64,000 nucleotides of DNA. It comes from Mobula hypostoma (taxonomy: Eukaryota). Of this stretch, positions 5,921 through 46,277 are shown piece by piece. A program made the translations under genes and the position numbers. The notes below the pieces were generated by a model. It had not been told where the DNA came from. It saw only the letters and a list, made by a program, of their open reading frames with translations, and ran no database searches. The DNA lies in assembly GCF_963921235.1 (NCBI RefSeq), contig NC_086108.1, positions 30,754,001 to 30,818,000 on the forward strand, in the 5' to 3' direction. Numbering within the stretch: position 1 is the stretch's first letter; each line of letters opens with the position of its first letter.

Positions 5921-7050
5921 ACTAGAGAGCTAGGTTAGGGATGTGACTGAATGCAGACTAGGAGCTGGGACAAGAACACAGACTTGGGCTAGGACATTTG
6001 CTAGGAAAGTGGGACCAGGACAAGGAACTGGGAACTGGGAGCCTGGGCTTGGACTCCGAACCAGAGACTGGACAAGGACCCAGAACCTGGGTCTTGACTC
6101 GGGCTTGGACTTCGGAACTGGGCAAGGACATTATGTGGCTACAGGACTGGACATGGCTTGGGTTCCTCGAGGCTTGGATTCTTTGTGGCTTGGGTTCCTC
6201 ATGGTGAGGTCTTGGGAGACAGGACTAGGCAAGGCTACAGGACAGAATGAGAGACTCGTGGGCAAGACGAGGGAACTCCAGCACAGGACGAGGTTCTTGG
6301 ACGTGGCTTGGACAGGATGAGGGAACTCCAGCACCGGGCTGGGCAAGGTACTCCTGGGCTAGGCGAGGCACATGGACAGGACGAGACACCTGGACAGGAT
6401 GAGAACATGAAGTCTTGACTTGGTCAAGGGAGACAGGAACATGGAACACAGAGCCAGGACCCCTGCTTGGAAACAGGACGTAGGGCCAGAACTCATACAC
6501 AGAACACTGAGAGACAGATCTCCACTCAAGGTAGCAGCAGACAACCTGATCTACCCAACAGAGGCGAGGGCACAAAGAGACAGTTCTCAACACAAGGTAG
6601 TGGCAAACGGTTGGACCTACCTATTGAAGGCATGGACACAGAGACAGATCCCAACACTAGGTAGCAGCAAACAGCCAGACCTACCTAGCAAAGGCATGGA
6701 CACAGAGAAACAGTTCAAAACAATGACAGACATTTCTTATCTTGCTCCAGCAGTTGAGCTTAAAAACAGTGCAGGTGAGGGTTAGAGGCAAGGCGAGGCA
6801 AGGCAAGGCGAGGCGAGGCAAGACTTCAGGAGGAAGGGGTAGGGAAGGGATTCAGACAGGGGGTTTTGACAGGAACAATCTAGCAACTGAAGCTGAACCA
6901 AGGAGCTGTTTATGTAGCCAGCCCAAAATGTGAATCAGCTGCCTCAATTAGAGCACCCAACAGAAACAGGGAAAACCAGAAAACCTGGAATAAGGAATGA
7001 TGGACCAGACCGTGAACCGGAATCTGGACTTCACGGACCGGACCATGAAA
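5921..7050 (-). mobile_element. Probable LTR or LTR-element fragment with internal tandem repeats
   Basis: On the minus strand it begins tttcatggtccggtcc (degenerate TG start) and has cagctg...tacataaa (TATA-like). GC-rich repeated modules; no recognisable protein. Confidence 0.5.
6511..6720. repeat. ~64-66-bp tandem repeat, 3+ units
   Basis: gagacag.tc...ac.c.aggtag..gca.ac... units start at 6511, 6577, 6641 and (partial) 6705. Confidence 0.85.
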
Positions 7051-40750: not shown

Positions 40751-41110
40751 CCTTGCACTGTACCGCTGCTGTAAAACAACAAATTACACAACATGCCAGT
40801 GATAATAAGCCTGATTCTCTTATCCTTGTACTTGTCCAAATATCTTTTGAATGATTTTATTGTACCTGGCTGAACACTTTCTCAGCCAGTGAAGCCAGTG
40901 AGGACCACAGGCACTGAAGACATATTTTGAGTGCTCCAACCAAAGAAATGCAAATGGCACTGGCAGCACCCTAGGCAGGGCACCAACATTTGTGAAGAGT
41001 GGAGAAAACCAGGAGCACAGTAAAGATGGTTAAAACCAGTCCCAAGCATAATGGATGATGGGTGAGACTCAGACAGTTCATTGCAACCTGAGCTAAGTAT
41101 TGCCTGGTTA

Positions 41111-41116
<6 letters not shown>

Positions 41117-41168
<52 letters not shown>

Positions 41169-41175
41169 GTGTGTG

Positions 41176-41210
<35 letters not shown>

Positions 41211-41219
41211 GTGTATGTG

Positions 41220-41262
<43 letters not shown>

Positions 41263-41322
41263 GGGTGTGTGTGTGTGTGTGTGTGTGTATGTGGGGTGTG
41301 TGTGTGTGTGTGTGTGTATGTG

Positions 41323-41372
<50 letters not shown>
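41117..41372. repeat. Compound (TG)n microsatellite
   Basis: ~255 bp of TG with recurring tatgtgggg interruptions. Confidence 0.98.
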
Positions 41373-41374
<2 letters not shown>

Positions 41375-42216
41375 ACATGCAAATGAAGCTGTGTTTGTAT
41401 AATAGTCCAACTTGCCATTTTTGCCTTGAAAATACAAAACACATGGATAAATCATGTTTAAGGGGATCTCTGTCAAGGTGTTCAGAAAATGCAGGAGCAA
41501 CAATAGCACGTATTAGGGATGGATTTTGAAAAGACAGAAACACGAGTCGGTAAGTGAAGACAGGAAACTAATTATCCAACAGAATTTCCCAATCCCAGAA
41601 TGAGTTACACAATTAGCCTTCTCACAGGGTGCAGAGCGTGAAGCACACAGATATGTATGTATGGTAACTTTACAGCACTCCAGTTGTTCAGCCACAAAGT
41701 ACGTTGTCTAAGTGACTGGAAGAGTTCCACTCTTGATGGAAATAATGACTCATAAATTCTGATCCCTTGTGCCTTTTGGGGTTTTCTCTTATTTAGCCCT
41801 GATCCCCATAGGTCATATTACTACTAGTGGCACATTATATTTTATTATTAATTCAAGGGACATGGGCTTCATAGGCTGAGCTAATATCCCTAATTATTCT
41901 TTGCGTATTAAAGTCATATGACTATTTCACATGTCATCTTTCCACTGGAAGTCAACGCAAGCTATTCACATTGTTATAGATCATACACAATAGACAGAGT
42001 CTGAACAATTTCATCATCAAAGCCCTGCTCCAAGCACATGTGGTTGGCAATGAAAAATTAAACAGCTAAAGAAAGGAGGAAATGTCTCCAAGAACATCTG
42101 CACAGACAATATCAAGCATAAGTTAAGTGATAAGTAATATTCACTTCAATCAATGGCTATTACCAACAATAGAAGATCTAACTGTCCTTAGAAACTTTGT
42201 GAGATTAATTTCCTAT

Positions 42217-42451
42217 TGCTATGTTTTGTAATACCAAACCATAAAAACTAATTGAGAGGAAAACAAAAGAGCTGGGAAGGTGAGTCTAACTTTGTTGTTA
42301 GTTTAAATGAGGCACATGGCAGTGTGATGATATATGCATTCATGTACTTTTACATATAACCTGTGATGAATTATCTAAACAAACAAAGAATGCTTGATCA
42401 ACAACATTTAAAATATTACTCAAGTACTACTAAAAAATCAAATATACAACA
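42217..42451 (-). repeat. 3' LTR
   Basis: Direct repeat of 46030-46267 (exact core tgtacttttacatataacct at 42343 and 46157); adjacent PPT aagcagagaggag (minus strand, 42452-42464). Confidence 0.88.
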
Positions 42452-42534
42452 CTCCTCTCTGCTTAGCCACAAACTTAAAAGTTATATAAAACGCATCCTA
42501 ACGCATACATATTGCACATACATACAATACTGTA

Positions 42535-42734
42535 TTGCTGTGGAGAATTTTTTATTCTTCTGGGATAAAGTCTTTCCTGACAAGGGAGGTCATTCTGCTT
42601 GGCAGGTGAGACCTATGGGTGAGAAAACAATCTCAGATTTTGGAGCCTGTGAAAAAATCTCAAATTCCTCCACGGTGGCTGTAGGAGTTGAATCTGAAAA
42701 GGCAGGAAGTGATTCTGACAACTCTGGGCACTTT
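42535..42734 (-). pseudogene. Gypsy pol extreme C-terminus (post-integrase tail)
   Basis: CPELSESLPAFSDSTPT...CQERLYPRRIKNSPQ resembles the R-Y-P-x-R-x-R-x-P-P end of Gypsy pol. Confidence 0.65.
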
Positions 42735-43657
42735 CTCTTTTTCATTCCTCAACTTTTCTCTGTGCATCTACTTTGATCTTTGCTTCTCTTCTGGTCCCAG
42801 CTTCTTTCACTCTCTTCCTTCTGCTCTCGATCGCTCTCTCAATCATACTCTCCTTATCCTTGATTCTGTCACAATCCATATTATGGTCTTGCTCACGGTT
42901 TTTCTCTGTACCCCTTCTCTCCATTTCAACTTCTCATCTCTCTTTTCCTCACTTTCCTTTTTCTCCGAGTTACTTGTGAGTATCTCTGAATTTGTAAATT
43001 TCTTGAGAAATTAGGTCTCGTTTATGCTCTTCCATTTCCACAGCGCTTATGTCATCCTCCTATTTCTTTTCCTTTTCTTCATTCTAGGACGTGCATCTTG
43101 ATCTTGGGAAGTTGCATTTAGTTGATTAGAGTATTCTCTTATTAATCCTTCTAATGCCCCCCTTACAATTTGATCTCGCCTCTTGGTTTCCTCATCCACA
43201 ACATCATCTGACGAATCCTTTGATTTTGGATTTCCATTGACTCCTTTCTTTTTAGTCTTCCATTCATCCAGCTTGGCTTCAGTCTTTGTATCTACTTTTA
43301 TAAGCAGCTTTTTATCTCCCACTTGAAGTTCATGCAATGACCTTAATGCACGCAGAGTAGATTCTAGTTCTTTATGCTCACAAAAGTTGAATGCTTGCAA
43401 CTTTCCTGAAACTCCTTAAACTGTCTTCCAGCTTAAAACTAAGCCACAGTTTGCAAGTAACTGCCTGATTACTATATCAAAAGCTTTCTTAGAAATGTTG
43501 CCTACAAAAACAGCTGTAGTCGGACCACTGCTTTGGTCACTTTCACGATTCCTCTGAGCAGGGTGGTCCTTTCTTGGTCGAATTTGCTTTCCCACCCGAA
43601 GCACCGAGGTTACCCTCTGCTGGGCGATGGTTTATGGCATTCAGCATGGAGGCAGTA
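42735..43657 (-). pseudogene. RBM25: Processed, intronless RBM25 fragment (RRM to RE/RD-rich region)
   Basis: RKDHP...GPTTAVFVGNISKKAFDIVIRQLLANCGLVLSWKTV*GVSGKLQAFNFCEHKELESTLRALRSLHELQVGDKKLLIKVD...DEETKRRDQ...LIREYS...DISAVEMEEHKRDLISQEIYKFRDTHK. Stops and frameshifts present. Confidence 0.93.
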
Positions 43658-45789
43658 GTGGCATCAGCCAGTACCTTTTTCACTTCACTTTCAGATGACT
43701 CTGTTGTAGGCAATGTACCATACAAATTGTGGATGGATCTCCAATTAAGTTGTGGTTGTCTCAGCAGATTACATCCTCATGATGCTGGCCCTCTTGTTTT
43801 TACCACATAGAAGCCCAATGTGGCTTGTTGGGTGTTGGTTTGTATTTCATTCACTGTTACGAACATCATTCCCACAGGAATGACATTTTTCTTCAGTACA
43901 GATACTATTGGATATCTCTAGACTTCAGTTCTTCAGTATCTTTGAAATACCATTCAAACTTATTTTGTGGAATGACTTAAACAGCTGACCCAGTGTCCAA
44001 ATTTATTTCAATTAATTTGCTGTTCACTTTTGATGTAATTCATGTTGCTTGTCTATTGCTAGTTTTCACATTATAAAGCTCAAGGCTACACAGTTCTGTG
44101 TCATTTTCATCAATATCAGATTTTTCATCAATGGCATGCGGATTAGTGCTCTTTTTGAAACCGCAACTTGACTTCTTAGCTTTTTCTCTTCTCCATGCAG
44201 TTCATTTATTTTGTCTGCTTGACATGCTCATTGTATGTGTCCTACTTCGTTGTATCTTTTGCAAGTTTCACCGCAAGTTTGCAAGTTGCAAGTCTGCATT
44301 GGTCTGGTGTACTGTATGTGAGCCCCTGTCACGATATTAACACAATTAGTTCAACCAGGCAAGCCTCCATGTGGATATTGCATATTTGTTCACACGCACT
44401 TTCATTCCTGATTGCAACTCAATTGTCTCTCTGTCTGCTATTTCAACTGCTCTTTCAAATGTAAGTTGTGCTTCAGTTAGGAGCTGTAACCCTCTCACCA
44501 GGCGTGTGTACAAATTTGGCTCATTAACTAGCTCTGCTAACAGTGGCATGACTCAGCAGCAAGTAGGCCACCCTTCACAAACAATCTACGTCTAAGGTCA
44601 GTATAATTCAGGGTTCAACCAAATAGAAACGTTGTGATGTTCCAATTAAAGAGACCTTGATTTGAGCGAATGCTGGGTAAATACTGCCCATACACAATTA
44701 TCGGTTGGCGAGAAATAACAGGTCATGCACTGCATAAAATTATGAAGAAAGTATATTTATCAATTTCAGCTTTATCAGACAGTTATAAAAAGAAAGAATA
44801 GAAAGGAGAAAAAAGAATAAAAGGGCCCATTACAGTTAAATCAGTCTAAATGTGCACATGATCTTTGGAGCTCATCCCTTCCATAAGGTGGGTATAACCA
44901 TTACGCATAACGTTGAGCCCATGGTCTGAATGAAACCACCCACCACAGTCTGAATTTCCCTCAAAGTCCATATTGACCATACTGGTTCTCTGTTACGTGC
45001 ATTTGCCCTTCTTCCTTGGAGGCATTCATCTTCATAAAGCACTTCTTGCAACAGGGTCTCTCCTTCCTACGGCATTCTGCAGCATCTTCCCCTCTGCCCC
45101 ACTCTGCAGCTCCCTCCAGAAGACCCCAAAGTAGACTACTGTCAGTCACATATCTCTCTCTGCCCCACTCTCTCCAGAACCTTCTCCCGATCCCACCATC
45201 CAGACTGGATGACACAACATTCCTAACTTGAACACCGGGCTTCTTATCTTTAGCCAAAACCAAAACATCCTACCAGCAGGACATTTTGCTTTTACAGAAA
45301 ACTGCTAAAATGAAATACCTACAGCATAGCAGTAGAAATCTTAACCAGGGCATTACAGAGTCATTTTTGTTTGCTTTCTTGTAAGATTCTACAAACTAAA
45401 TGATCTCTCAGTACATCATTAAGCTCATCATTGAACTAACAATGCTAAGCCTACTTCAATACTGCCACGTTCACCGAAATGGAATCCCCTTTCTTTTGAT
45501 TCTGCTTATGAAACCTAAAGTATTCTACAATTAACAATGGCTTCAGTTCAAAATGTTCCTGCATTACTTTCAGAATATCAGCAAAACTAATTCAACTGGC
45601 TTGGCTGGAGCAGTTAAATTTCTAAGCAACCTGTATGCCTCTAAACTCAATGCACTCAGCAAAACTGGCACTCACTTCTCATTGGCCATTTCATTTGCTT
45701 TAAAATACAACTCAATCTGTTCAGTATATATATTCCAGTTACCTTTTCTGTAATCAAGTGCATCAATCTTTTCCAATGTAGCCAGCCAT
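43658..45789 (-). pseudogene. Gypsy gag-protease remnant, interrupted by a solo LTR
   Basis: ATG at 45789: MAGYIG...YFKANE...VLLSAL...LRNLTAPAKP...FRFHKQNQ...LRDHLVC | LLTEAQLTFERAVEIA; degenerate zinc knuckle (VGHIQ*AC); LDTGSAV at 44000-43981. Confidence 0.85.
44485..45357. mobile_element. Solo LTR (873 bp) nested in gag
   Basis: tgtaa...ttaca termini, flanked by gagc/gagt (4-bp TSD with one mismatch); gag reads through once it is removed. Confidence 0.85.
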
Positions 45790-46029
45790 TTCTGCCTTCT
45801 GTTTCTTTATGATTATTATCAACCGGTATCCACTGTTTATGAATCTGTGAATTCTTCCATTTTCAGCCTTTTTTTTATTTGGTCGCCTCCCTTTTCGTGA
45901 AGAAAATGTGTTGTGCTTTTTTTTGTAACTTGCTGTTCTTTATTTTAACTCAAACATATTGCTGCATTTCAACAGGTTCATTTTAAAAATACTTGTATCA
46001 GTTTCATTTTTAAAATACTTCATCAGCCC

Positions 46030-46267
46030 TGCTATGCTTTGTAACTCCAAAAACATATTGAAAGGAAAACAAGAATGCCGGGAATGTAAGTCTAACTTAA
46101 TTTTTATTTTAAGCAAATCTCATATCACATGGTGGCGTGATGATGTATGCCATTTGTGTACTTTTACATATAACCTATGATGAAATATCTGAACAAACAA
46201 AGAACACCTAATCAACAATATATTTGCAGCATTACACAAATACTACTGAAATATCAAATATGTGACA
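46030..46267 (-). repeat. 5' LTR
   Basis: Homologous to 42217-42451; followed on the minus strand by a degenerate PBS-like gggctgatgaag. Confidence 0.85.
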
Positions 46268-46277
46268 CCTATCCATC

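Follow-up and report, generated by a model that had tools for sequence, protein, structure and literature searches.

A decayed Ty3/Gypsy element of Mobula hypostoma with an intron-free RBM25 fragment in place of its reverse transcriptase, RNase H, and integrase core

We describe a chimeric retrotransposon in a 64,000-nucleotide stretch of the Mobula hypostoma genome (contig NC_086108.1, positions 30,754,001 to 30,818,000; hereafter the window, in whose own numbering features are given unless a contig is named). It lies on the minus strand at 42212–46272 and runs from a 5' long terminal repeat (LTR) through gag, protease, a piece of the splicing-factor gene RBM25, and the tail of pol to a polypurine tract and the 3' LTR. 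The element is very probably a dead copy of a non-autonomous Ty3/Gypsy family in which reverse transcriptase (RT), RNase H, and integrase were exchanged for a spliced RBM25 fragment and which was amplified in trans. Whichever route produced the two junctions between element and host sequence, the capture took place at the RNA level and was followed by amplification of the chimera.

Results

All features of the element that a preliminary description had listed from the DNA letters were recovered, in the same order and inside a perfect 5-bp target-site duplication. Read in the sense of the element, the duplication ATAGG (CCTAT on the plus strand) at 46268–46272, identical to that at 42212–42216, is followed by a 238-bp 5' LTR with TG...CA ends (46030–46267). 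The N-terminal part of gag (45358–45789), with an ATG at 45789 that opens MAGYIGK..., matched residues 5–143 of P0032, a teleost Gypsy polyprotein used as tblastn query (E 1e-33). On the other side of a nested insert described below, the C-terminal part of gag with the CCHC knuckle region and the retropepsin, ending ...KKVLADATT (43654–44484), matched residues 128–413 of the same protein (E 1e-32). The intron-free RBM25 segment comes next (42743–43653) and is followed, across a purine-rich patch (42731–42742), by the last ~68 codons of pol, the integrase C-terminal tail (CPELSE...ERLYPRRIK..., 42730 to about 42527). The polypurine tract AAGCAGAGAGGAG (42452–42464; AAGCAGGGAGGAG in other copies) adjoins a 235-bp 3' LTR, again with TG...CA ends (42217–42451). 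The two LTRs differ by a p-distance of 0.20 and a Kimura two-parameter distance (K2P) of 0.24. The tail, earlier put at ~60 codons, is recognizable as the end of pol in the L012 copy, where its final 29 residues match the C-terminus of P0032 at 52% identity, and from its context in locus L054 (see below).

The features that define Ty3/Gypsy elements are present: direct LTRs with TG...CA ends, a 5-bp duplication, a CCHC Gag, and a D[TS]G retropepsin. The motifs CX2CX4HX4C and LDTGSAVSVI occur in open reading frames (ORFs) of other copies, gag-asp_proteas/RVP domains were found by Pfam in relatives, and the gag-protease part also matches a further Gypsy polyprotein, P0056, by tblastn. The order RT, RNase H, integrase is present in P0056 and in the autonomous relative L048, and the window element is without these domains; it is a non-autonomous Ty3/Gypsy derivative. 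The absence of RT, RNase H, and the integrase core, already remarked on for the window copy, extends to 29 other copies, none of which gave a tblastn match to any of the three. Pfam searches of 12 short ORF pieces of the window copy returned nothing useful; better-kept copies were needed.

The identity of the cargo was established from both protein and genomic matches. A 122-residue open stretch (43047–43415) had 31 protein matches, which included full-length fish RBM25 at 60–68% identity and, at the top, a 220-residue shark RBM25-like protein (P0001) at 82%. The shark protein maps exon by exon onto the parental RBM25 locus and is a short isoform of the real gene, not a copy of the element. 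In the better-kept copy L016 the RRM_1 domain scored 34.8 bits against a Pfam cut-off of 20.7, and a PDB sequence search with the piece encoding the RNA-recognition motif (RRM) returned only weak matches to the RRMs of U2AF65. The true RBM25 gene was located by its PWI-domain exons, which the element lacks, and occupies about 99791400–99840650 of contig C1, with the PWI exons at 99791418–99802426. Window positions 43651–42763 match seven parental exons at 77–91% identity, with adjacent matches that abut within 0–2 nt where the parent has introns of 1.0 to 6.0 kb, and ~30 nt of an eighth exon follow. Thus, as had been proposed from the absence of introns in the window copy, the cargo is spliced RBM25 sequence, spanning eight parental exons with every intron removed. 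It consists of a cassette exon, the RRM exons, a linker, the RE/RD-rich exon, and the first ~20–30 nt of the next exon, and is a fragment of RBM25 (RRM plus RE/RD region, no PWI) rather than a copy of the gene.

The exon with which the cargo begins is, in the parent, a 48-nt in-frame cassette exon (C1:99832586–99832633, in the L036/L037 region) with the sequence VSMLYTMNRCPTEGKQ. It is preceded by CTCCCTCCCCCTTTTCAG and followed by GTAAC, a good acceptor and a good donor. Because fourteen of its residues are identical to the N-terminus of the shark short isoform, it must be a conserved alternative exon of some age, one that was part of the captured mRNA.

The two junctions of the cargo with the element were then placed to the nucleotide or to a short patch. 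Junction 1, earlier put at ~43657, lies between 43654, the last base of the element, and 43653, the first base of the cassette exon, and it is the same in 18/18 aligned copies, where it reads ...GATGCCACAACT/GTCTCCATGCTG... (the slash marks the breakpoint here and below). In the parent this first base stands directly after a polypyrimidine tract and a CAG acceptor, and no parental intron sequence was found upstream of the junction in any aligned copy. Junction 2, earlier put at ~42735, falls in the purine patch at 42742–42731, which lies ~30 nt inside the eighth exon (exon G) and shares 9–11 nt with the pol tail. Exon G reads GGAGAAGAAAAGG/GATAGG; intact pol, as in L054, reads TGAGAAGAAAGA/TGTCCAGAG, with the patch followed by TGTCC; and the family reads GGAGAAGAAAGG/TGTCCAGAG. 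The two junctions differ in kind, one lying at a splice acceptor and the other in a patch of microhomology.

A search of the 3.48-Gb assembly with the DNA of the element revealed 29 further loci, drawn from the 40 scored of 22,034 first-look candidates, that align across both junctions at 72–80% identity. Similarly, a gar RBM25 protein query gave 54 scored matches, all of them contiguous, intron-free, and interrupted by stop codons. A pattern of 35 places across junction 1, allowing up to 3 mismatches, had 922 genomic matches compared with 0 for the reversed control, which excludes chance; by our own arithmetic from this count, at about 12% decay per site, the copy number is roughly 1,500. Junction 2 is common to most of 25 aligned copies. 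Where both ends of a copy were readable, target-site duplications were read by eye from the flanks: GTTTC/GTTTC and CCCAC/CCCAC are perfect, CCTCC/CCTCT, CATTA/CCTTA, GACTA/GACCA, and TTGTC/TTGCC agree at 4/5 bases, and one further pair agrees at 3/5. The whole chimera was thus re-transposed, with the same junctions at different insertion sites and with different duplications, as expected of the amplified non-autonomous family to which the preliminary description had tentatively assigned the window copy. Within the family, five copies (L016, L017, L018, L020, and L027) form a subfamily with a common internal deletion from the middle of exon D to the start of exon F; they then run almost directly to junction 2, and exon E and the greater part of the RE/RD region are missing. 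Subvariants of the junction (ATGCTGTAC in some copies, ATGCCGAAC or ATGCCAAAC in others) point to more than one master lineage.

These results bear on two explanations that do not involve capture by the LTR element. In the first, a processed RBM25 pseudogene made by a long interspersed nuclear element (LINE) would have landed in an ordinary Gypsy copy that later lost pol. LINEs are abundant in this genome, and LINE ORFs lie in the flanks of several of the loci. However, the RBM25 piece is internal to the element and in sense orientation, and it is flanked by neither a poly(A) tail nor a duplication of its own, as had been noted before; it ends ~30 nt into a coding exon, where it abuts pol sequence, with no mRNA 3' end. 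It also takes up precisely the place of pol between the protease/RT boundary and the tail, and the same junctions recur at the 922 places within duplications that belong to the element and differ from copy to copy. We therefore consider a LINE origin very improbable and agree with the earlier view that the capture was LTR-mediated. The second explanation, a local event at this locus after insertion, such as gene conversion or recombination, found no support; the preliminary description had allowed for it, in the form of orthologous insertions with intact pol. It is refuted by the occurrence of the family at the 922 places and by contigs of a second organism (organism B, below) that bridge both junctions of this very insertion, and its probability is practically negligible.

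Autonomous candidates found with P0056 were dropped because they represent a distant, different Gypsy lineage, with 65–70% DNA identity in short patches, and the real backbone was recovered by a search with the junction pattern. The element side of junction 1 followed by the RT-start motif (...GATGCCACAAC[A/T]GTGTTCAAGGATGGCATTGG) had 377 matches compared with 0 in the control. In one such relative, L048, gag-protease is 72–76% identical to the family, the same level as between family members, and the likeness extends precisely to the junction and no further; beyond it L048 encodes RT, RNase H, and the N-terminus of integrase, after which a LINE interrupts the copy. The RT-type copies were broken before the integrase tail in three attempts, and the context of the tail was taken from pattern matches instead. 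In L054 the family tail stands after the integrase C-terminal domain and reads ...HIDQLRRAESIV, a stop, and EERCPELSEP....

The tail anchor had 1,794 pattern matches in contexts other than RBM25, and among 100 of these that were listed roughly two thirds, judged by eye, read CATCCAGAAGAAAGG/TGTCC. In three loci of this kind in genome G000 (L055, C5:155415040–155415700; L056, C9:27895850–27896500; and L057, C12:148589850–148590510), the pol tail directly follows the integrase zinc-finger region (about residues 957–995 of P0056). These loci represent an integrase-core deletion of the same Gypsy backbone, an abundant derivative whose crossover lies in the purine patch used in the RBM25 capture. 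At least two separate switches have thus taken place in this patch.

Next we consider the coding potential of the chimera. The frame runs from GAT GCC ACA ACT of pol into GTC TCC ATG ... of RBM25 at junction 1, and 10/24 copies have at least 30 stop-free codons on each side of the junction in this shared frame (the junction motif was not found in 6/30 copies, leaving 24). ORFs of 178–284 residues cross junction 1 in L004, L016, and L030, and the 284-residue ORF of L016 holds RRM_1. The founder thus read Gag-protease into RBM25 in frame, and in individual copies protease and RBM25 lie in one frame across the junction, in line with the suspected Gag-protease-RRM fusion, whose frame the window copy was too decayed to establish.

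The cargo could have played an active part: as a Gag-protease-RRM/RE-RD fusion, or as a released fragment of RBM25 that lacks PWI, it might have aided packaging, export, or splicing escape of the chimeric RNA, an advantage that would have driven the success of the family. In addition to the open frame, this is favored by the junction counts of 922 RBM25-type against 377 RT-type matches, although these come from patterns of unequal stringency, and by the 25 positions at which 70% or more of the copies depart from the parent, 22 of which are third codon positions. Compared with today's parent, 30 copies differ by 11.7, 9.7, and 17.7% at codon positions 1, 2, and 3. Copies compared with one another, however, differ by 18.6, 16.4, and 17.5%, without a third-position excess, and a third-position bias against the parent is expected from synonymous drift of the host gene. 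Given the lack of codon-position bias between copies, pairwise ratios of nonsynonymous to synonymous substitution of 0.23–0.60 between copies and parent were rejected as evidence of selection on the element. Further, the integrase-deletion derivative of this backbone has become abundant with no cargo at all, and loss of exon E and the bulk of the RE/RD region did not keep the subfamily from spreading. An active role for the cargo is thus unlikely. The codon pattern is what synonymous drift of the host gene plus neutral decay of the copies would produce, with no visible selection on the cargo or its RRM; the copies have decayed neutrally since insertion, and the cargo may have been only a passenger. 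In any case, no signal of selection would be expected if a single master copy had given rise to the family in a rapid burst.

In 6 copies the K2P between LTRs ranges from 0.17 to 0.31. Contigs of organism B (run X5) span the window insertion at each of its LTR edges and at each junction, with 0–4 differences each and at single-copy depth, revealing an orthologous insertion that is ~1% different. Contigs of organisms C and D (runs X9 and X10) bridge the edges of the insertion and are 6–8% different. The insertion, and so the family, therefore predates the split of these organisms. In all three runs the summed depth over gag, protease, and RBM25 is thousand-fold, indicating many paralogous copies. 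In a run guessed to be RNA (X13), a contig at depth 359 covers 43290–43448 with 21 differences, which fits the parental RBM25 mRNA and not the window copy, and an exact contig at depth 2.3 lies inside the nested insert; the X13 contigs do not demonstrate transcription of the element.

We propose the following route for the capture, the simplest account and one modeled on oncogene transduction by retroviruses. A sense-oriented element upstream of the cassette exon would have been transcribed with read-through into the gene, and the weak GT at its protease/RT boundary would have been spliced to the acceptor of the cassette exon to give junction 1; the position of the junction is read directly from the copies, and we lean modestly toward splicing as its cause. 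The spliced chimeric RNA would still carry the packaging region. During reverse transcription, a single microhomology-guided switch from the pol tail of a helper RNA into RBM25 exon G would then have produced junction 2, a step we consider likely; here the microhomology is observed and the switch is what we infer from it. The resulting chimera would keep what is needed in cis (LTRs, primer-binding region, gag-protease, pol tail, and polypurine tract), and the enzymes of autonomous relatives, acting in trans, would have spread it to about a thousand places.

The preliminary description had instead invoked template switching onto co-packaged mRNA, and in its full form this would make both junctions switches onto free, mature RBM25 mRNA (LTR-mediated retroposition), the exon-boundary position of the 5' junction being a coincidence or the end of the mRNA template. 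The clear microhomology at junction 2 agrees with switching. At junction 1 the element and the exon both have GT and are alike at 6/10 bases, and therefore a switch guided by microsimilarity is also possible there; Tan et al. (2016, Genome Res, PMC5131818) describe such switches in several animals, with microsimilarity at the two fusion points alike. On the other hand, we estimate that only about 2% of random breakpoints would come within 3 nt of any of the ~8 exon starts in ~1.1 kb, the polypyrimidine tract and CAG before the cassette exon make it look internal rather than the start of a transcript, and two non-homologous switches are required instead of one. Because the 5' junction lies exactly on a splice acceptor, a spliced read-through RNA fits better than two switches onto free mRNA. 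Two switches remain a substantial, if less probable, alternative.

Several observations weigh against the spliced read-through route or against parts of the wider picture. The autonomous element's own sequence starts GTGTTC at the junction-1 point, so that a GT is present, but the candidate donor ACA/GTGTTC appears to be a poor match to the 5' splice-site consensus, and a better-looking AAG/GTACTG lies unused 21 nt upstream; this, like the GT and the partial likeness just mentioned, counts in favor of two switches. In 100 kb around RBM25 the only LTR-like match lies outside the gene, no search having been aimed at an intronic remnant of the element. The protease stays below the Pfam threshold and goes undetected in decayed copies. 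In most copies, read directly, the RBM25 frame is shifted by +1 relative to the pol-tail frame at junction 2, and therefore the C-terminal end of the fusion protein is not fixed by the copies. The unequal stringency behind the counts of 922 and 377 belongs here as well. Finally, no second class of cargo appeared among 100 of 648 matches listed at the junction-1 position, each of which was an RT-type copy, an RBM25-type copy with mutations, or part of an unrelated repeat; recurrent use of the element site as a donor is therefore unsupported. It seems doubtful to us that this Gypsy lineage of cartilaginous fishes is a recurrent gene-capturing platform, in which a purine-patch switch hot spot and splicing into host exons would yield several high-copy cargo families, with a Gag-protease-RRM/RE-RD fusion, its RNA-binding domain borrowed from a splicing factor, promoting propagation of the chimeric RNA so that the chimera out-copied its parent.

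Discussion

The kind of event described here is already known, from LTR retrocopies, maize Bs1, crocodilian endogenous retroviruses (ERVs), and retroviral oncogenes; what is new is that RBM25 is the cargo, that the host is a cartilaginous fish, that copies are so many, and that the 5' junction falls exactly at an acceptor. In the literature searched, neither RBM25 cargo nor a family of this type in sharks or rays was reported. Tan et al. (2016) report that LTR-mediated retrocopies act as non-autonomous LTR elements in animals (PMC5131818). The RBM25 family resembles these in that an intron-free piece of host mRNA stands between discontinuous parts of one LTR element, and in its microsimilarity at a fusion point, its in-frame potential, and the secondary retroposition of the whole chimera. 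It differs in scale, with a few secondary insertion sites and 1–5 copies for Bs1 mentioned there compared with an RBM25 junction at 922 places. It also differs in its 5' junction, where a splice acceptor coincides with an exact overlap of no more than 2 nt, and in being an old family of cartilaginous fish that is shared between species.

Maize Bs1 and other plant elements (PMC13317346, PMC5131818) similarly keep their LTRs and part of gag together with host exon fragments, and they are likewise non-autonomous, with switch points that do not vary from copy to copy. However, Bs1 is a low-copy plant element with pieces of three genes, whereas the RBM25 family carries a piece of one gene, has about 10^3 copies in a vertebrate, and retains its protease. 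The crocodilian ERVs with captured KIT-ligand and nectin3 mRNA (Chong et al. 2014, PMC4299795) also spread by retrotransposition and are shared by related species. These are retroviruses in which env was replaced or nothing was lost, and they are few (six nectin3 insertions), with intact ORFs reported to be under purifying selection, whereas in the RBM25 family pol was replaced in a Gypsy element and the numerous copies decayed neutrally. The animal cases in the papers compared involve one to a few copies, whereas a vertebrate Gypsy element with a splicing-factor RRM has reached about a thousand and persists across related species.

With their contrasting signatures, the junctions allow one to ask, in a natural setting, whether retrotransposons of the germline also use the route by which retroviruses capture oncogenes. 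A model of oncogene transduction by read-through, splicing, and a single recombination was reportedly put forward by Herman and Coffin in 1987 and Swain and Coffin in 1992. The RBM25 family resembles transforming retroviruses in having its 5' junction at a host splice acceptor and a 3' junction of the kind that illegitimate or microhomology recombination during reverse transcription would form, and in the loss of replication genes with a need for a helper. Unlike them, it is a germline retrotransposon, not infectious, with a truncated splicing-factor cargo and a weak putative donor. The use of the purine patch by the integrase-deletion derivative makes the idea of a switch hot spot testable. 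There is also a practical consequence: open frames that resemble RBM25 and lack introns number in the hundreds in this genome, and annotation may mistake them, some being hundreds of codons long, for genes or retrogenes.

Additional sequence features

The gag region of the window copy is split by a nested 873-bp insert with TG...CA ends (44485–45357, minus strand) that does not belong to the chimeric family. It starts TGTAATG and ends GGTTACA, and its flanks, ...ACTC and GCTC..., are a probable 4–5-bp duplication. The interruption occurs in the window copy only, the other copies running without a break from about q910 to about q1784, and comparison of contigs revealed joints that skip 877–890 nt at the same site. 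The part between q910 and q1784 has genomic matches of its own, with ~860-bp stretches at 79–80% identity (C18, C52, and C50), and the insert is probably a solo LTR of another family.

LINE-type RT/endonuclease ORFs of 120–357 residues lie beside or interrupt seven of the loci (L002, L009, L010, L014, L026, L028, and L048), indicating that repeats are densely nested in this genome. In locus L053 (G000, C1:35171200–35172700), an antisense LINE RT fragment (...ISKFADDTK..., a 200-residue ORF) occupies positions 299–1000 and ends about 25–40 nt upstream of the pol-tail anchor, in that copy alone. Beside the element in the window, at ~40890–41570 (oriented positions 6200–6880 of L001), lies a long imperfect dinucleotide tract, an ordinary microsatellite that yields THTHTH... 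open frames of 134–198 residues.

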